Notes: a model not told the origin generated them from the sequence alone. A stretch of DNA of 64,000 bases from Methanobacteriota archaeon (GCA_012729095.1 JAAYDU010000034.1:178-64177); one strand, 5' to 3'; positions 53,031 to 61,543 are shown, numbered from the stretch's first letter. Made by a program: numbers and translations.

Positions 53031-53058
53031 GGGCCTATAAACACCTTACTCGGATATG

Positions 53059-53075
53059 GCATTTTCACCGCGCCC
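53059..53075 (+). promoter_or_regulatory. Motif GCATTTTCACCGCGCCC, starting 58 nt upstream of the herA ATG
   Basis: Read directly from the sequence. 16/17 identical to 56408-56424. Followed 7 nt later by TTTCTATA. Confidence 0.5.
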
Positions 53076-53116
53076 GCAGAAATTTCTATACACCCTGGAA
53101 GGCATGGCCGGCCGAC

Positions 53117-54643
53117 ATGACGGACATTGGCAGGATTTTCGGCAACCGGGTCATGGAGCTGCGCTTTCGCACTAGCGAGGCGGAGGACCTCCAGGTCGGG
53201 GAGATGCTGGTTGTCGAGGAGGGCGGCGTCAAGTTCCTGGTGCGGACCATGGACGTGCTTTTCGGCGCCGATTCGGACGATGACGATTACCTGGAATGGC
53301 AGGCCGGGGTGGCCATGAGGGACGATTTCGACTACGAGCGCGTCAAGGGCGACCTTTACAAGGTGGGAGTTTGCACCCCCCTGGGCTGTCTTAGGGATGA
53401 CAGCTACCGCAAGGCGAAATCGATTCCCCGGCACTTCTCCCGGGTGCGCCGGGCGGACCAGGGGGATTACGACTTCCTGAGGCCGATGATGGGCGATGTG
53501 GAGGTCGGGCGCCTGCGCTCCGGGGACCGCGTGCTCGATTTCCGGGTGGGCATCGATTCGCGGGGATTCCCGCACCATGTGGGGATATTCGCCACCACTG
53601 GCATGGGCAAGAGCAACCTGATGAAATCATTGGCGCTGTCCTGCATGGAGTCCCGGCGCTGCGGATTCCTCATCCTCGATCCGCACGGGGAGTACTTCGA
53701 CGGCGGAGAAAGGGGTAAGAAAGGACTGTCGCACTCCAAGCTGGCCCCTGAGGCCTTGGACGTTTACTCCTCGCGCAGGCTGGATGGGCCGCACAGTTCC
53801 ATTCACGTATCCAGCGCGGAGATAGAGATCCCTGACCTGGCGAACCTCTACGAGTTCTCCGGGGCGCAGCTGGAATGCCTGCAGGCATCGCAGTGGAAGT
53901 ACGGGGAGAGATGGCTGGATGAGCTTCGCGACAAGAGCGTGGCCAACATCGTCAGCGACCTGAACGGGCGGTTCCACGAGGGCAGCGTCAACGTGATCAA
54001 GCGCCGTCTGGATTCCATATTCCAGTTCGATCTCGTCACCACGGACCGCGATCTGAGCATGACCAGGGCGGTGATCTCGGCGCTCCAGGACGGCAAGACC
54101 GTTCTGGTGGACACCTCCAACATGTTCGAGGCCGAGGAGCTGCTGGTCTCGACCGTTCTCACCCGCGCGATATTCGAGCGCAACAAGGCCCTGTACTCCG
54201 ACAAGACGAGGTTCGAAAAGGCACCTCCGGTGCTGATCGCCATGGAGGAGGCGCAGCGCGTCCTCTCGCAATCCAAGGGCACCGTCTTCGCCCAGATCGC
54301 CCGGGAGGGCCGCAAGTTCAAGGTGGGGTTCTGCGCCGTCTCGCAGCAACCCAAGCTGATCAACGAGGAGATCATATCCCAGTTCAACACCCTCTTCATC
54401 CTGGGGCTGGCGGACAAGCGGGACCGGGACATACTCAGGAACTCCGCGAAGCAGGACATATCCATGCTGGACAACGAGATCCAGATGCTTATGCCAGGCG
54501 AGGCCCTGATCGCGTCCCCGTTCACGCCGTTCGCGATACCGTGCAAGGTGCATCTTTACGAGGATTATGTTGAGGAGTCCAACGTCAGAACGGGGGAAAG
54601 GAAAAATACCGTGAACAGGGATGTGGGGCAGACGTTCTTCTGA
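53117..54643 (+). CDS. herA: HerA-type hexameric DNA helicase/translocase (DUF87 ATPase)
   Basis: HAS-barrel-like N-terminus, Walker A TTGMGKSN, Walker B VLIAMEEAQ, QQPKLI. Start ATG 53117. Confidence 0.8.
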   Translation: MTDIGRIFGNRVMELRFRTSEAEDLQVGEMLVVEEGGVKFLVRTMDVLFGADSDDDDYLEWQAGVAMRDDFDYERVKGDLYKVGVCTPLGCLRDDSYRKAKSIPRHFSRVRRADQGDYDFLRPMMGDVEVGRLRSGDRVLDFRVGIDSRGFPHHVGIFATTGMGKSNLMKSLALSCMESRRCGFLILDPHGEYFDGGERGKKGLSHSKLAPEALDVYSSRRLDGPHSSIHVSSAEIEIPDLANLYEFSGAQLECLQASQWKYGERWLDELRDKSVANIVSDLNGRFHEGSVNVIKRRLDSIFQFDLVTTDRDLSMTRAVISALQDGKTVLVDTSNMFEAEELLVSTVLTRAIFERNKALYSDKTRFEKAPPVLIAMEEAQRVLSQSKGTVFAQIAREGRKFKVGFCAVSQQPKLINEEIISQFNTLFILGLADKRDRDILRNSAKQDISMLDNEIQMLMPGEALIASPFTPFAIPCKVHLYEDYVEESNVRTGERKNTVNRDVGQTFF

Positions 54644-54652
54644 GGCGCAGTG

Positions 54653-56407
54653 ATGGAAGCGGAAACCACGTTCCTTCTAGAGATGGCCATCATCATGGTC
54701 ACCGCCGGGGTGATTTCCGTTATCTTCTCCAAACTGCGCCTGCCGGTGGTCATCGGCTACCTGGCCGCGGGGATCATACTCGGCCCGAACCTGTTCGAGC
54801 CCTCGTTCATCACCGACATGGGCATAATCGATGCCCTGGCCAACGCCGGTATCGTCCTTCTGATGTTCACCCTGGGATTGGAGTTCAACCTGCGCCGCCT
54901 CCGCAAGGTCGGTCTCTTCGCCGCCCTGGCCGGGAGCGTGGAGATCGTGCTCATGATAACCCTCGGTTATGGGCTGGGCATCGCCCTGGGATGGACCACC
55001 CTCCAATCCGTGTTCCTGGGGGCGGTGATGAGCATCAGCTCCACCGCGGTGATCATCAGGGTGCTCGCCGACTCGGGAATGATGAAGAAGGAGTTCGCCG
55101 AGGCCATAGTCGGAATATTGATAATAGAGGACATCGCCGCGGTCATCATCCTGACGCTGTCGTCGCCTCTGGCCGCCGGCGACGGGGTCACCATAACCAG
55201 CATAGTCATGCAGATCGCCTACATCGGGGCCTTCATGCTCATACTGCTGGTGATGGGGCTGGCGGTCCTACCGAGGCTGATGGACCGCATGTACCCCACC
55301 GCCTCCCCCGAGACGCTGCTCATAGTATCCCTGGGCATGTGCTTCGGCATGGCCATGGTCGCCCAGTTCTTCGGGCTGTCGGTGGCCATCGGGGCGTTCC
55401 TGGTGGGAATTATAATCTCCCAGTCCATGGCCCAGGAGAAGGTGGTGGAGCGCATAACCCCCATCAAGGAGATGTTCATGGCCCTGTTCTTCATCTCCAT
55501 AGGGCTGCTGATCGACCCTTGGCTGATCATGGACAACATACTGGTGGCCGTGGCCATCGCGGTGGTGTTCATCATCGGCAAGATGTTCAGCGTCACCTTG
55601 GGCAACTTCCTCAGCAACAAGGACGCCCGCACCTCGGCCATGGCCGGACTGGGCATGGTGGCCATGGGAGAGTTCTCCTTCGTCATAGCCAAGACCGCCT
55701 ACGACCTGGGGGCGGTGGACCAGCTATTCTATTCCTCGGTCATAGGGGCGGCCCTGATCACCATGATATACCTACCCGCCTCGTTCAAAAGGGCCCCGCA
55801 GACCGTCACTTCCGTTGGGAACGCCCTTCCGGCCTCTGTGCGCGAGTCGCTGCGCCGGGTGGACCATCTGCGCAAGGACATGGGCACCTGGATGAACGCC
55901 CACGCTGACCGGCGCAGGGAGGTCCAGAGACAGATATTCTGGATATTCATCGACATGATGATCATATTCCTCCTGCAGGTGATGGCCGTCACCTTCTACG
56001 ACATCGTCGGGCTGTTCGGAGTGGACCCTGACGGGATCGGAGCGGTATGGTACGTGGTCGCCATAGTAGCATTCATCGGCCTCATGCTGCCGCCTTTGCT
56101 GAACATCATGAACCGGGTGAGGGTGATCGGCCTTATGCTGATACGCGGGGTGATGGAGGGAGGGCACTTCGAGACGGGGGCGGAGGGAAGGCTGTTCAAG
56201 GTGTTCGTGGACCTCATCGTCTCCATCATAGGCGTCGTTCTGTTCTTCCTCTTCATTCCCATAGCGCCTCACGTTGAGGGATTCCCGGTGCTGCTGGTGT
56301 TCGGCGCCGCGGTGGGTCTGTTGATAGCCTACCTACTGTGGGACGCCAACAAGAGCGCCTACGACCGCATGTGTCACATACTCACCGACCGCCTGCGCGA
56401 GGAGTGA
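54653..56407 (+). CDS. CPA2-family cation:proton antiporter with an extra C-terminal membrane domain
   Basis: LPVVIGYLAAGIILGP, LLMFTLGLEF, IIEDIAAVIIL. About 13+ TM helices. GTG 54650 is an alternative start. Confidence 0.8.
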   Translation: MEAETTFLLEMAIIMVTAGVISVIFSKLRLPVVIGYLAAGIILGPNLFEPSFITDMGIIDALANAGIVLLMFTLGLEFNLRRLRKVGLFAALAGSVEIVLMITLGYGLGIALGWTTLQSVFLGAVMSISSTAVIIRVLADSGMMKKEFAEAIVGILIIEDIAAVIILTLSSPLAAGDGVTITSIVMQIAYIGAFMLILLVMGLAVLPRLMDRMYPTASPETLLIVSLGMCFGMAMVAQFFGLSVAIGAFLVGIIISQSMAQEKVVERITPIKEMFMALFFISIGLLIDPWLIMDNILVAVAIAVVFIIGKMFSVTLGNFLSNKDARTSAMAGLGMVAMGEFSFVIAKTAYDLGAVDQLFYSSVIGAALITMIYLPASFKRAPQTVTSVGNALPASVRESLRRVDHLRKDMGTWMNAHADRRREVQRQIFWIFIDMMIIFLLQVMAVTFYDIVGLFGVDPDGIGAVWYVVAIVAFIGLMLPPLLNIMNRVRVIGLMLIRGVMEGGHFETGAEGRLFKVFVDLIVSIIGVVLFFLFIPIAPHVEGFPVLLVFGAAVGLLIAYLLWDANKSAYDRMCHILTDRLREE

Positions 56408-56424
56408 GCATTTTCACCGCCCCC
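56408..56424 (+). promoter_or_regulatory. Motif GCATTTTCACCGCCCCC, starting 58 nt upstream of the mre11 ATG
   Basis: Read directly from the sequence. Begins right after the antiporter stop codon. Followed 9 nt later by TTTTTTAA (56434-56441), which could serve as both oligo-T terminator and TATA box. Confidence 0.5.
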
Positions 56425-56465
56425 ATCGAATGCTTTTTTAAGCCCAGCCCTCTAATCCCTGCCGG

Positions 56466-57578
56466 ATGAGGATTGCGCACATAGCCGACACCCACATCGG
56501 CTTCTCCGCTTACCGTCGCTCGGACCCCGATACGGGTATGAACCAGCGGGAGGTGGACGTTTACCGAGCGTTCGAGCGTCTTGTGGACTCCCTCATATCC
56601 GAAAGACCTGACGCGGTGCTGCACTCGGGGGACCTCTTCGATTCCGTGCGCCCCTCGAATCGCGCGCTGTCGGTGGTGCTCGAGCAGCTGCTGCGCCTTT
56701 CCGAGGAGAGAATACCGGTGGTGATGATAGCTGGCAACCACTCCACGCCCCGGCTGCGGGAGACGGGGAGCGTGTTCCGGCTTTTCGAGCACATAAAGGG
56801 CGTGCACGCCTTCTACACGCCTGGGAAGCACTGCCTGGAGCTGGGGGACCTGACTGTTGCCGCGTTCCCCCACCAGGACAAGGGGTCTATGGTCGAGGCC
56901 CTGCAGGGATGGAGGCGCGGCCGTTCTCGTTTCGAAGTGGGCATGCTGCACGCGGGCATACAGGGGCTGACCCGGTACAGCATGGGCGAGGCCAACGAGC
57001 TTAACCTGCCCTCCTCCCTGCTGAACCTGGACGCGGACTACATAGCCCTTGGGCACTTCCATGGAAAGGAGCAGATCACCGAGAACGCCTGGTACAGCGG
57101 CTCCTTGGAAAGGCTTTCTTTCGCCGAGGCCGGCCAGGAGAAGGGATATATGCTGGTGGACCTGGACAAGGGCCGCAAGGACTTCGTTAGCCTCCCCGCA
57201 AGACCGATGCGTTCCCTAGGTCCCTTCAAGGCAAAGGGGAAGGACGCCGGAGACCTGCAGGATGAGCTGGTCGCCGCCTTGAGCTCTGCGCAACTGGAAG
57301 GGAGCATAGTGCGCCTGGTGGTGGAGGACGTTCCCGCCGCCCTGTACCGCAGCCTGGACCTTAACGCCATGCGGGCCCTGGCGGAAAAGGCGGTGCATCT
57401 GGAGCTGAAGTTCGAGATCGTGCAGGGCACCGATTCCGTGCAGTGGCGCTCCACCGCCTTCGGTTCCCTGGACCAGGAGTTCGGATCGTACCTGTCGCGG
57501 GTGCCGGTGGAAGGCGTTGACAAGGAGGAGCTGCGCCGGCGGGGGCTGGACTATCTCAAGAGGGGGGAGCGGGAATGA
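56466..57578 (+). CDS. mre11: Mre11 double-strand-break repair nuclease (calcineurin-like phosphoesterase)
   Basis: IAHIADTHIG, HSGDLFD, IAGNHS, LGHFH. Confidence 0.85.
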   Translation: MRIAHIADTHIGFSAYRRSDPDTGMNQREVDVYRAFERLVDSLISERPDAVLHSGDLFDSVRPSNRALSVVLEQLLRLSEERIPVVMIAGNHSTPRLRETGSVFRLFEHIKGVHAFYTPGKHCLELGDLTVAAFPHQDKGSMVEALQGWRRGRSRFEVGMLHAGIQGLTRYSMGEANELNLPSSLLNLDADYIALGHFHGKEQITENAWYSGSLERLSFAEAGQEKGYMLVDLDKGRKDFVSLPARPMRSLGPFKAKGKDAGDLQDELVAALSSAQLEGSIVRLVVEDVPAALYRSLDLNAMRALAEKAVHLELKFEIVQGTDSVQWRSTAFGSLDQEFGSYLSRVPVEGVDKEELRRRGLDYLKRGERE

Positions 57579-59995
57579 GGCTGCGCTACATGGAGATGCG
57601 CAACTACCGGAAGTTCCGCGACTCCCGCATCGAGTTCCCCGATGGCGTGGTCGCCATAGTGGGCCAGAACGGGACCGGCAAGACCACCATACTGGAGGCG
57701 GTGACCTGGGCCTTGTTCGGCAACTCGTCCTCGGTGGTGAGGGACAACAAGGAGGGGGTGGTCAGCTTCGGCGCTTCACCGGGAGATGAATGCTCGGTCG
57801 TGCTGGAGTTCGACCTTGGCGAGGACTCCTATCGCCTGGCCCGCAGCATGAAGGTGAAGAGCCTGAAGACTGATGCCTCGCTGGAGGTGAACGGAAAACT
57901 GCTAGCGTCCGGGGACACGGATGTCACCAAGGCCGTGGCCGCAAAGCTGGGCATGGACCACCAGGCCTTCTTCGTGTCCGTTTTCACCAAGCAGAAGGAC
58001 CTGAACGCCCTTGCCAACCTGAGGCCGGCCGACCGCAAGACCCTGGTGCTGCGCATGCTGCGCGTGGACCTCCTGGACGATGTGATCAAGAGCATAGACC
58101 GGGACGCCAAGGACGCCAAGAGGGAGGCCGAGGGAACCTCCGCCCTGCTCCGGAATGCCGAGGGAAAGGACCGGTTGAGCTCGCTGAGGGAAGAGGAGCG
58201 CGCCGCTGCGGAAAGGTCCAAGAGCATCGCCGAGGGAAGCGCGAGGCTGCTGGCGGAAAGGGACGCTGCCAAGGAAAGGGCCCGGGCCAGCAGGGAGCTT
58301 TGGGGATCGGAGGAAGAGCGTTACCGGAAGGACGTGGCCCTGGAGAGAAGGCAGGCCACCGCCCGGGCCGGGTTGCAGGCCATGCACGGGTCCCTGGAAA
58401 AGCTGGAGGCAGAGGTTCGGGAACTGCGCCTCATAGGCGATTCATTGCCCGATCTGGAGAGTAAGGACGCGGAGTACAGGGAAGCCAAGATCGCCGCGGA
58501 AAGGCATTCCACCCTGCGGGAGGCGTTCCTGGGACGGCGGAGGAAGGAGGAGGAGCTGGCAGCCAGGCGCGCCGACCTTGTTTCCCTGCTGGAGGAGGCG
58601 GAGCAGGCGGTCAAGGACATGGCCGGGCTGCCCGACCTGGAGGCCAGCCTGGCCACGGTAGAGGAGAACCTTAACGGCACCAGGGACCTGCTGTCCTCCA
58701 TAACCGCCCAGGCCCGGGTGGCCGAGGCGGAGGCGACCAGGCTTCGTTCCGAGATCGTTTCCTCGAAGGAAAGGTCGGAGGAGATCGGCAAGCTGGGAGA
58801 GGACAGCAACTGCCCCACCTGCCTGAGGCGGATGGGGGCGCAGTACACCGACCTCCTTCGACGTTACCAGGAGGAGCAGGCAGCTTTGGAGGGGGCCGCT
58901 GCGAAGCAGGACCTCATTGCAAAAGAACTTGCAGAGCAGCGTTCCCGCGCCGACCGGCGCCGCGAGGCGCTTGAATCGCGCCGCTCCAAACTGCTGTCCC
59001 AGGCCCGGCTAAAGGCCTCTCTGGAGGAGAGGGAGCGCAAGGCAAGGCATTCCCTGTCCCGTACGCAGGCGGCGGTGGACGGGCTGCTGAAGGAGCTGGA
59101 GGGGGCGGGACCGGCGGAGTACGACGCCAAGGCGCATGATGCAGTGAAACGAAGGGTGGCCGAGCTTGAGCCGTCCCACCTGGCCCTGAACCGGGCCGTG
59201 ACCAAGATGGAGAGGCTCCCCCTGGCCTTGAAGGAGAGGGAGGAAACGGCCGCGGCCGTGGCCCGGGAGGCGGAGGAGCTGCGCGGCGTCTCCCGGGAAA
59301 GGAGGGAGTTGGCCTTCGACATCGGGACGCTGCAGGCGGTAAAAGCGGCCCACGAGGTAGCCAGGATGGACGAGGAGCGGCTGACCCAGGAGATAATCAG
59401 GGCGGAGGGGGAGCAGGCCCGCCTGCGCTCGGAGGTCCGGACGCTGCGGGAAAGGATCGCGGAGCTGGAGGGCCTGCGGACCAGGCACTGCGCGCTGATG
59501 GTCGAGCTGGAGACGCTCAACCGCCTGAGCCAGGTGATGAGAGGGTTCAAGGAGAACGTCATCTCCCGCATCACACCCACCCTGTCGGACATATCCTCGG
59601 ACCTGCTGTCCCAGTTGACCGAGGGCAAGTACGGCGGCATGCGGCTGGACGAGAACTACCAGATGTGGCTGTACGATCAGGGGGAGGAGTTCCGATTGGA
59701 GCGCTTCTCCGGCGGGGAGGTGGACCTTGCAAACCTTTGCCTGAGGTTGGCGATATCGCGGATGATCATGGAGCGCTCCGGCAATCAGATGAACTTCTTG
59801 GTGCTCGACGAGATATTCGGCTCGCAGGACCAGTCGCGCAAGCGCAGCATACTGGAGACGCTGGGGCAATTGCAGAAGCAGTTCCGGCAGATACTGCTGA
59901 TAACGCACATCGATGACGTGAAGGACAACGTCAGCGCCGTAATGCGGGTGCGGGAGAACGAGAACGGCTCCAGCACGGTGGTGCTGGAGGATTAG
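57575..59995 (+). CDS. rad50: Rad50 SMC-like ATPase
   Basis: Walker A GQNGTGKTT, long coiled coils, zinc hook CPTC (58811-58822), signature FSGGE, Walker B LVLDE. ATGA overlap with mre11. Confidence 0.85.
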   Translation: MRLRYMEMRNYRKFRDSRIEFPDGVVAIVGQNGTGKTTILEAVTWALFGNSSSVVRDNKEGVVSFGASPGDECSVVLEFDLGEDSYRLARSMKVKSLKTDASLEVNGKLLASGDTDVTKAVAAKLGMDHQAFFVSVFTKQKDLNALANLRPADRKTLVLRMLRVDLLDDVIKSIDRDAKDAKREAEGTSALLRNAEGKDRLSSLREEERAAAERSKSIAEGSARLLAERDAAKERARASRELWGSEEERYRKDVALERRQATARAGLQAMHGSLEKLEAEVRELRLIGDSLPDLESKDAEYREAKIAAERHSTLREAFLGRRRKEEELAARRADLVSLLEEAEQAVKDMAGLPDLEASLATVEENLNGTRDLLSSITAQARVAEAEATRLRSEIVSSKERSEEIGKLGEDSNCPTCLRRMGAQYTDLLRRYQEEQAALEGAAAKQDLIAKELAEQRSRADRRREALESRRSKLLSQARLKASLEERERKARHSLSRTQAAVDGLLKELEGAGPAEYDAKAHDAVKRRVAELEPSHLALNRAVTKMERLPLALKEREETAAAVAREAEELRGVSRERRELAFDIGTLQAVKAAHEVARMDEERLTQEIIRAEGEQARLRSEVRTLRERIAELEGLRTRHCALMVELETLNRLSQVMRGFKENVISRITPTLSDISSDLLSQLTEGKYGGMRLDENYQMWLYDQGEEFRLERFSGGEVDLANLCLRLAISRMIMERSGNQMNFLVLDEIFGSQDQSRKRSILETLGQLQKQFRQILLITHIDDVKDNVSAVMRVRENENGSSTVVLED

Positions 59996-60383: not shown

Positions 60384-61427
60384 TCAACGGACCTCTGGCT
60401 TCGTTGCCACGACCTTTAGGCTCTCCACCGGCAGCCCCCTATGCTGCTCCTTGCTGATATGCCTGTCCTCATTGATGCGATCGACCGTGAAACCGGCGGC
60501 GGCGATATGCTCCAGGTACTCCTCCTTCAGTACCGCCCCGGCTACGCATCCTGAGACAAGGTCCTTGTCCAGCCTCTGTTCCTCGGTCAGCTCCTCCAGC
60601 AGCACCATGTCGGAGATGTACATCCGGCCTCCCGGCCTGAGCACCCTGAACGCTTCCTTGAAGGCCTGGGACTTGTCCGGCACCAGGTTGATGACGCAGT
60701 TGCTCATGACCACGTCGACCGAGCCGTCCTCCACCGGCAGGTCCTCGATGTCGCCAAGCCTGAACTCCACGTTCTGGAACCCGTGGTCCCTGGCGACCTT
60801 ACCGGCCCTGGAGACCATCTCCTTGGTGAAGTCCACCCCGATCACCCGGCCGTTCGTACCGACCCTCTTGGCGGCCAGGAAGGAGTCCATTCCGGCGCCG
60901 CTGCCCAGATCGAGCACTGTCTCGCCCTCCTTTATGCGGCCCAGGGCCCCGGGGTTGCCGCAGCCCAGGCCCAGGTTCGATGAGGGAACAAGGTCCATCT
61001 CCTCGTCCGAGTAACCCACCGACGCGGATATCTGCAGGGGGCTCTGCTCGCTGCTGCAGCAGCTGGACCCGCAGGGGCCGCCGTTCAGGGCGATGGAGCC
61101 GTACTTCTTCCTTACCGCTTCCTTTATCTCGTCGTCCGTAAGGGTCCGGGCGTCGCAACATTGATCATGCTCTTCCACTCCCATGCCCACGAGGCGCTCG
61201 CGCATCCCCTCGCTGGCGATGCTGTATATCATGTTCCTGCCCCGCTTCTCGAACCTCACCACCCCTGCCTCGTGAAGCACCTTGAGATGCCTTGATATCG
61301 TGGTCTGGTCCTTTTTCGTGGATCGGAACTCGCAGGCGCAGTGGTCCTTCTTTAAAAGGCATCCTACGATGGTCAGCCTGGTCTCATCGCCCAGGGCCTT
61401 GAACAGCTTGACGTTCTCGGAGAGCAT
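60384..61427 (-). CDS. arsM: Fusion of ArsR/SmtB-type HTH domain and arsenite S-adenosylmethionine methyltransferase
   Basis: N-terminal [38 protein letters not shown]-terminal [23 protein letters not shown], plus Cys clusters (CGSSCC, GLGCGNP). Start ATG 61427. Confidence 0.75.
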
Positions 61428-61543
61428 TGATTCATGTACATATGAACATATATACATATTTTAGGGGCTTTCCGATCGCGTACCGACCTTGACCTGGGAG
61501 GAAGCGATAGCCTGCCAACCCGCGTCAACGTCCTTGCGGCCAG

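Follow-up and report, generated by a model that had tools for sequence, protein, structure and literature searches.

We have identified a short promoter-upstream element that stands before both herA and mre11 in a 64,000-nucleotide (nt) stretch of DNA from a Methanomassiliicoccales archaeon (GCA_012729095.1, JAAYDU010000034.1:178-64177), hereafter the window. The element was recognized through two nearly identical 17-mers, whose pairing is real and beyond chance, and it is likely to be an upstream activating site of a repair and damage-tolerance regulon in Methanomassiliicoccales, probably switched by DNA damage. The putative members of this regulon are herA (with a co-directional antiporter gene), mre11-rad50, radA, rpa, xpd, lhr, nre, rfcL, the iRadA-PPB2-PolB2 operon and a GyrI-like gene. 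The element appears to be a new, Methanomassiliicoccales variant of the archaeal DNA-damage promoter element, which is known from Sulfolobales (Le et al., 2017, PMC5817253; Sun et al., 2018, PMC6061795).

The herA copy, GCATTTTCACCGCGCCC (53059-53075), and the mre11 copy, GCATTTTCACCGCCCCC (56408-56424), match at 16 of 17 bases, and each starts 58 nt before the start codon of its gene (ATGs at 53117 and 56466), just as the first-pass annotation of the window had described. A gene caller based on codon usage chose the same two starts. The genome studied comprises 1.68 Mb in 72 contigs, with 59.7% G+C and a completeness of 99.4%, and in the whole of it the exact 13-mer GCATTTTCACCGC is found twice, at these two sites; base composition predicts 0.002 copies per window and 0.05 per genome. 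The next best genomic match to the 17-mer has two mismatches and lies in a coding-looking sequence. In the window there are four matches at up to two mismatches, a count that is uninformative, since 8 of 100 shuffles also reached four.

The TATA-like boxes that had been reported behind the 17-mers are present, 7 nt (herA) and 9 nt (mre11) downstream of them and 34 and 32 nt ahead of the respective ATGs. Both boxes are kept within the genus, and at mre11 the purine-rich TCGAATGC, which resembles a TFB recognition element (BRE), directly precedes TTTTTTAA. The two regions have the make-up of an archaeal core promoter, in which a purine-rich BRE precedes an A/T-rich octamer some 25-35 nt ahead of the start codon, and their transcripts would be near-leaderless, judging from the predicted start sites. 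The regions 3' of the motif had been called unrelated, but they are not wholly so: the TATA box, the ATG and a BRE-like, purine-rich GAA share the same register in both promoters. A further box, CTAATCCC, is kept in most genomes of the genus between the mre11 TATA box and the ATG and may be a promoter-proximal or initiator region. The metatranscriptome contigs X1-X4 are short and of low depth, and their ends do not coincide; X1 and X2 cover mre11-rad50, and 56110-56383 is uncovered.

For comparison, the sequences upstream of herA and mre11 were aligned from 16 sister species and from members of other families. Before herA, CATTTTCA is found in 12 of the 15 genus genomes and CGTTTTCA in two, one genome being degenerate, and most species keep GATATGG-CATTTTCA-CCG and AGAAATTTCTATAC. 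Before mre11, CAYTTTCR is present in all 16 genus genomes and is followed by the conserved TATA box (TTTATTTAAG) and the CTAATCCC box. The conservation before herA and mre11 orthologues that the first-pass annotation had proposed to look for does exist, within the genus for both genes and in other genera for herA (see below). However, the 3' half of the mre11 17-mer varies between species, bar one G and the terminal CCC, and for this reason the 16/17 identity partly overstates the functional unit. Judging from these alignments, what is conserved is not the full 17 nt but an 8-nt non-palindromic core, CAYTTTCR, whose wider form is [C/T]A-N-TTTC-[A/G], with a loose C-tract (CCC or ACCCC) often 4-5 nt after it.

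The genes that lie behind this core in the whole genome were surveyed with a simple codon-usage gene caller of our own (1559 genes, 86% coding), counting forward, non-coding CAYTTTCR sites 40-200 nt before a called gene. There are 16 such sites, before 15 genes, which is no more than for control words, so that the motif is not the common genome-wide word that it might have been. By their Pfam matches, nine of the 15 clearly act in repair or replication, namely herA, mre11, rfcL (RFC large subunit), rpa (an RPA-like single-stranded-DNA-binding protein, with two sites), xpd and lhr (both helicases), nre, radA and iRadA. Two more are plausible further members, a gene for an exonuclease-like protein of the RNase_H_2 fold and a GyrI-like gene. 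The other four encode an aldo-keto reductase, a radical-SAM enzyme, an M29 peptidase and an unannotated product (gene 1556, contig C19, 192 nt behind the core), which was counted as non-repair. By comparison, the control words CTYTTTCR and CAYTTTCY precede 23 genes, of which none acts in repair (Fisher p = 3e-5; with the two seed genes excluded, 2e-4), and the association with repair genes that had been suggested for the motif is thus borne out.

The arrangement of these sites is uniform. In the 12 sites compared, all of them facing the gene, the distance from the end of the core to a TATA-like octamer is 15-21 nt (median 17.5), and in seven of the 12 a CCC lies about 13-17 nt after the core start. 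A position weight matrix added little information beyond the core, except for a weak C at +13, and was not used for membership. The true ATG of radA is 84 nt upstream of the gene call, and the core lies 65 nt before this true ATG; the iRadA gene encodes a 245-aa Rad51-family protein and is followed by a family-B DNA polymerase gene. The form [A/C/T]A-N-TTTC-[A/G] was absent within 160 nt upstream of all seven of mcm, pcna, polD-L, lig, fen1 and both orc1/cdc6 genes. Since these core replication genes lack the element, the regulon appears to be one of repair and damage tolerance rather than of replication.

The genus orthologues of the further genes show the same footprint, in which the core is kept and the flanks drift. 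The core is present before radA in 17 of 17 genomes, iRadA in 16 of 16, xpd in 15 of 15, gyrI-like in 12 of 14 and lhr in 11 of 13. At rpa it is kept in 17 of 17 genomes at each of the two sites, with unalignable sequence in between. The least constant case is rfcL, with the exact core in five of 16 genomes, TATTTTCA in seven more and degenerate sequence in four.

Beyond the genus, [CT]A-N-TTTC-[AG] precedes the TATA box of radA in 37 of 41 loci from seven families, the other four being degenerate. The herA genes of other genera have CACTTTCA, CATTTTCG, TACTTTCG or AACTTTCG, then 18-19 nt and then a TATA box, within unrelated flanks. Among the herA loci of Methanomassiliicoccales type outside the genus, nine carry an exact element, two carry AACTTTCG and seven are without it; in none of nine loci from Poseidoniia or other Thermoplasmatota was it found upstream of herA. 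In one small-genome family, f7, the radA genes (loci L286, L287, L291 and L293-L295) show two or three tandem copies of yAyTTTCGg with a period of 9-10 nt, e.g., TACTTTCGgTACTTTCGg, followed by an ACCyCCC tract and then the TATA box. Direct repeats spaced by about one helical turn point to a protein-binding site.

A second kind of conservation surrounds some of the cores. An inverted repeat is found at xpd, rpa site 1 and radA, with the core in its loop or next to it; the arms vary by species and stay complementary, as in GGTTCAC-TTTCG-GTGAACC, GCTCAC-TTTCG-GTGAGC and GTGAGCC-ATTTTCAATC-GGCTCAC. In the xpd helix, 85.8% of the cells are paired and three pairs have changed on both sides; its covariation score was reached by 0 of 500 shuffles, and slid controls were paired in at most 52%. 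The mean folding energies of 34-nt windows, real versus shuffled, are -13.8 and -7.6 at xpd, -11.2 and -5.4 at rpa site 1, and -8.3 and -2.1 at radA, whereas the same comparison gave no sign of a hairpin at herA, iRadA or rpa site 2 or, on average, at lhr. The copies of xpd, rpa site 1 and mre11 stand directly behind the stop codon of the upstream gene. The radA copy is not in a 3' untranslated region, because its flanking genes are divergent, and the hairpin register of xpd is unlike that of radA; a terminator therefore accounts for some of these repeats at most.

We infer that a sequence-specific protein binds the core, that it activates rather than represses and that it responds to damage. 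Relative to the predicted start of transcription, such a protein would contact the core, and possibly also the C-tract, at about -55 to -48, with one copy per core and several on tandem cores. From its place upstream of BRE/TATA it would help to recruit TFB and TBP on these near-leaderless promoters. The promoters would be switched together, probably on DNA damage, and the internal promoter would keep mre11-rad50 co-regulated with herA despite the inserted antiporter gene.

A candidate for this protein can be proposed by analogy. The genome encodes two Orc1/Cdc6 proteins. The Orc1-1-type copy (366 bits to 2qby_A) adjoins an A/T-rich region that resembles origin recognition boxes (ORB), and in the complete genomes of the order this type lies at about coordinate 1. 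The second paralog (C70:3693-4847) is divergent and not next to the origin, and its best PDB match is 1fnn (Pyrobaculum Cdc6). All 61 genomes of the order that were searched encode at least one Orc1/Cdc6 match, and in 60 there are two. Raymann et al. (2014; PMC3914693) report Orc1-1 and Orc1-2 as ancient paralogs, of which Thermoproteales kept only Orc1-2. Given this retention and the best match to 1fnn, the second copy plausibly belongs to the Orc1-2 cluster, and it is our leading candidate for the factor. Another report (PMC11791011) describes archaeal polB2 neighbourhoods as enriched in orc1/cdc6 homologues; in this genome polB2 and orc1/cdc6 are not neighbours. Autoregulation of orc1/cdc6 was considered and rejected, as neither gene has the core within 160-200 nt upstream. 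A search of the genome for a WYL-domain regulator of the PafBC type found none, and the genes that diverge from radA, lhr and the exonuclease-like gene encode no DNA-binding regulator.

The nature of the genes involved, with a recombinase, a single-stranded DNA (ssDNA)-binding protein, a translesion polymerase operon and a GyrI-like gene, is SOS-like, and the element might instead be the operator of a LexA-like repressor that holds the repair promoters down until damage removes it. The tandem copies in one family would suit such an operator, and with the core only 15-21 nt from the TATA box a large footprint could reach the BRE. However, archaeal repressors usually overlap BRE/TATA or the start site, whereas the core is consistently upstream of both, and the site is not palindromic. 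In addition, the matching Sulfolobales element is needed for activation according to PMC5817253 and PMC6061795. We therefore consider a repressor operator unlikely. The inverted repeats raise a different possibility, namely that the conserved signal is the nucleic acid structure itself, whether a cruciform or a hairpin (in DNA or RNA) with terminator or insulator function, and not a protein site. The position of the core in or beside the loop at three sites, the folding energies below those of shuffled sequence and the covariation in the xpd helix agree with this, as do the three copies that abut an upstream stop codon. Nevertheless, the hairpin is missing at herA, iRadA, rpa site 2 and, on average, lhr, and its register differs between xpd and radA, whose copy lies between divergent genes. 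The features kept at every site are the loop sequence and its spacing from the TATA box rather than a stem, and the tandem direct repeats of family f7 fit a hairpin poorly, so that a purely structural signal seems very improbable. Finally, the 16/17 identity and the common register of BRE, TATA and ATG could be a leftover of a local promoter duplication or gene conversion between herA and mre11, without any shared regulator. The 3' half of the mre11 17-mer is not conserved in sister species, so that part of the identity may be coincidence or conversion, but the same core and spacing precede at least nine unlinked repair genes on other contigs, and these copies are conserved across seven families, which already contradicts this explanation and leaves it almost no credit.

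The element is known here from its sequence, position, conservation and gene association. Several points weigh against the activating site that we favour over these alternatives. By raw count, the core is no more frequent in upstream windows than control words are, and the case therefore rests on which genes stand behind the core and on conservation. The genes come from our own crude caller, with a Pfam check that covered the named genes only, and the sister species are non-independent samples. The co-varying inverted repeats at xpd, rpa site 1 and radA are not predicted by a plain protein-site model. The Sulfolobales element adjoins the BRE directly, whereas here the core is 10-12 nt, about one helical turn, further from the TATA box. 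Regarding the candidate factor, A. pernix ORC2 (1w5s) scores 77 bits with the second paralog versus 82 with the Orc1-1-type copy, and the core is absent within 160-200 nt upstream of either orc1/cdc6 gene, unlike the damage-induced orc1-2 of Sulfolobus.

The genes of the locus were identified by Pfam and NCBIfam profile matches and are listed in Table 1. Their order is herA, CPA2 antiporter, mre11 and rad50, and not that of the four-gene herA-mre11-rad50-nurA cluster of thermophilic archaea. The antiporter gene starts 6-9 nt past the herA stop codon, and its own stop abuts the mre11 element; it is probably co-transcribed with herA. The mre11 and rad50 genes form one operon, as rad50 overlaps the mre11 stop by 4 nt. 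Between herA and mre11 there is a gap of about 1.83 kb in 13 of the 15 genus genomes that have both genes on one contig, which fits an antiporter insertion. In the other two, G009 and G010, the gaps are 131 and 84 nt and the antiporter is absent; before mre11, G010 keeps GCATTTTCA and G009 has CACTTTCG. Since these two genomes keep the mre11 element, the mre11 promoter and its element are independent of the antiporter.

Table 1. Location of the element copies, predicted promoter boxes and genes (window positions, unless a contig is given).
Feature	Position	Strand	Basis or remarks
herA copy of the element	53059-53075	+	core CATTTTCA at 53060-53067; C-tract CCC at 53073-53075
mre11 copy of the element	56408-56424	+	core CATTTTCA at 56409-56416; C-tract at 56420-56424
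TATA-like box of herA, TTTCTATA	53083-53090	+	BRE-like GCAGAAA before the box; 34 nt ahead of ATG
TATA-like box of mre11-rad50, TTTTTTAA	56434-56441	+	TTTATTTAAG in relatives; 32 nt ahead of ATG
CTAATCCC box	56452-56459	+	between mre11 TATA box and ATG; kept in most genus genomes
TATA-like box of the FtsZ-like gene, TTTATAGG	53033-53040	-	inferred; 18 nt from herA core
Divergent gene, partial FtsZ/tubulin domain	52122-52970/53030	-	Pfam, NCBIfam; start from gene call
herA (HerA/DUF87 helicase)	53117-54643	+	Pfam, NCBIfam, gene call
CPA2 Na+/H+ exchanger (K+ efflux-type)	54650/54653-56407	+	Pfam, NCBIfam, gene call
mre11 (Metallophos)	56466-57578	+	Pfam, NCBIfam
rad50	57575-59995	+	Pfam, NCBIfam
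xpd	C17:47654-49516		core upstream
rpa	C17:59568-60887		two cores upstream
radA	C16:37516-38457		core upstream

The herA copy had been placed in a divergent region shared with an FtsZ-like gene, and this is correct: the core stands 18 nt from a TATA-like box of the other strand, and for this reason the FtsZ-like gene may be co-regulated. The profile matches of its product are partial, with 54 bits to the Pfam domain and 64 bits to TIGR00065, whose cut-off is 295. The suggestion that nurA could be a further member did not hold, as NurA (PF09376) was not found in the 99.4%-complete genome. HerA, Mre11 and Rad50 are present without a detected NurA, and HerA may either do without the nuclease that usually partners it or use a divergent one. 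Immediately past rad50 on the other strand, 60384-61457 (-) encodes a fusion of an ArsR-type helix-turn-helix domain and an S-adenosylmethionine-dependent methyltransferase.

Other observations were made outside the window. The exonuclease-like gene belongs to a divergent pair, C57:30796-31560 (-) and C57:31656-32387 (+), whose shared intergenic region contains CATTTTCG; the products are the RNase_H_2 fold PolB-exonuclease-like protein and an SbcD-related phosphoesterase akin to PdeM, a ligase-associated damage-response endonuclease. A near-perfect palindrome of the core word, GCATTTTCACCGTTTCGGTGAAATGGC, is found on the minus strand of contig C12 (locus L004), some 650 nt away from the end of the contig, where it closely precedes a 613-aa open reading frame without an assigned function. 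The MCM protein (C8:23586-26705, -) has 1039 aa, with its Pfam match in separated pieces, and in family f5 (loci L303-L305) the RadA match runs from residue 85 onward in a frame of about 498 aa; both cases suggest inteins or other insertions.

The analysis provides a precise conserved element, a list of target promoters and a candidate factor in an order with cultured human-associated methanogens. It also offers an explanation of how mre11-rad50 stayed coupled to herA after the insertion of an unrelated transporter gene. A search of the literature outside subscription journals found no defined cis-element damage regulon beyond Sulfolobales, be it in Methanomassiliicoccales or in other Euryarchaeota. 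The results bear on how general Orc1-2-type control is in archaea, since Sun et al. (PMC6061795) pose as an open question whether proteins of the Orc1-2 cluster outside Sulfolobales do likewise. By extension, and with considerable doubt, A(N)TTTC together with a non-initiator Orc1/Cdc6 could represent an ancestral archaeal damage circuit that predates the split of Thermoproteota and Thermoplasmatota and drives an SOS-like regulon (radA, mre11-rad50, herA, rpa, xpd, lhr and the PolB2 mutasome); hairpin or cruciform extrusion at some of the promoters could then sense supercoiling or ssDNA.

Among known systems, the archaeal ORB bound by Orc1-1 resembles the element in having a TTTC/GAAA word beside a C/G tract, and it would share a winged-helix Orc1/Cdc6 reader if our candidate is right. 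However, the ORB-like TTCCAAAGGAAAT..GGGGTGGGGG by the orc1-1 gene of this genome has a dyad, with the G-tract on the other side of the GAAA word, whereas the element has no dyad and is located at promoters rather than at the origin. The possibility that the element is itself an ORB was rejected because of this different arrangement. The upstream activating sites of archaeal activators, such as Ptr2 of Methanocaldococcus, have the same one-sided position upstream of BRE/TATA, which fits recruitment of TBP and TFB; they are palindromic or paired sites of Lrp type and control unrelated genes. In the bacterial SOS/LexA system, as here, one short cis-element joins a recombinase, an ssDNA-binding protein, a translesion polymerase and excision repair. 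A GyrI-like gene is also among the members here, and sbmC/gyrI of E. coli is an SOS gene. Nevertheless, the SOS box, the operator of a repressor dimer, is palindromic and overlaps the promoter, whereas the core has no such symmetry and its place is upstream of the TATA box.

The closest parallel is the Sulfolobales element. In S. acidocaldarius, a non-palindromic A(N)TTTC at -44 to -39, upstream of the BRE, is essential for ultraviolet-inducible promoters, with ATTTTC at upsX and ACTTTC at upsE and upsA, and it is also found at herA (Le et al., 2017, PMC5817253). In S. islandicus, Orc1-2 binds the element, with the consensus AATAGTTTCRGWDTACTCWS, and activates (Sun et al., 2018, PMC6061795). 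The differences concern the position, since the core ends 15-21 nt before the TATA box and does not adjoin the BRE at -44 to -39, with start sites predicted here; the flanks, which are conserved here (C/T before, A/G after) and often accompanied by a C-tract; the genes, which here belong to classical recombination and excision repair (radA, mre11-rad50, rpa, xpd and lhr), without pili or DNA-import genes; and the host, which is a member of Thermoplasmatota and not of Thermoproteota. Nonetheless, the hexanucleotide A-N-T-T-T-C is present in all 12 genome sites, in the genus orthologue sets and in 37 of the 41 radA loci of the order. The upsX form, ATTTTC, equals the core at herA, mre11, rpa and iRadA, the upsE and upsA form, ACTTTC, equals that at xpd, radA, nre and gyrI, and AGTTTC, the form in the S. 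islandicus consensus, is found at radA in other families. Both elements are non-palindromic, occur in a single orientation upstream of BRE/TATA and stand before herA. In addition, the PolB2 (Dpo2) operon, which is damage-induced in Sulfolobales (PMC11791011), carries the element here.

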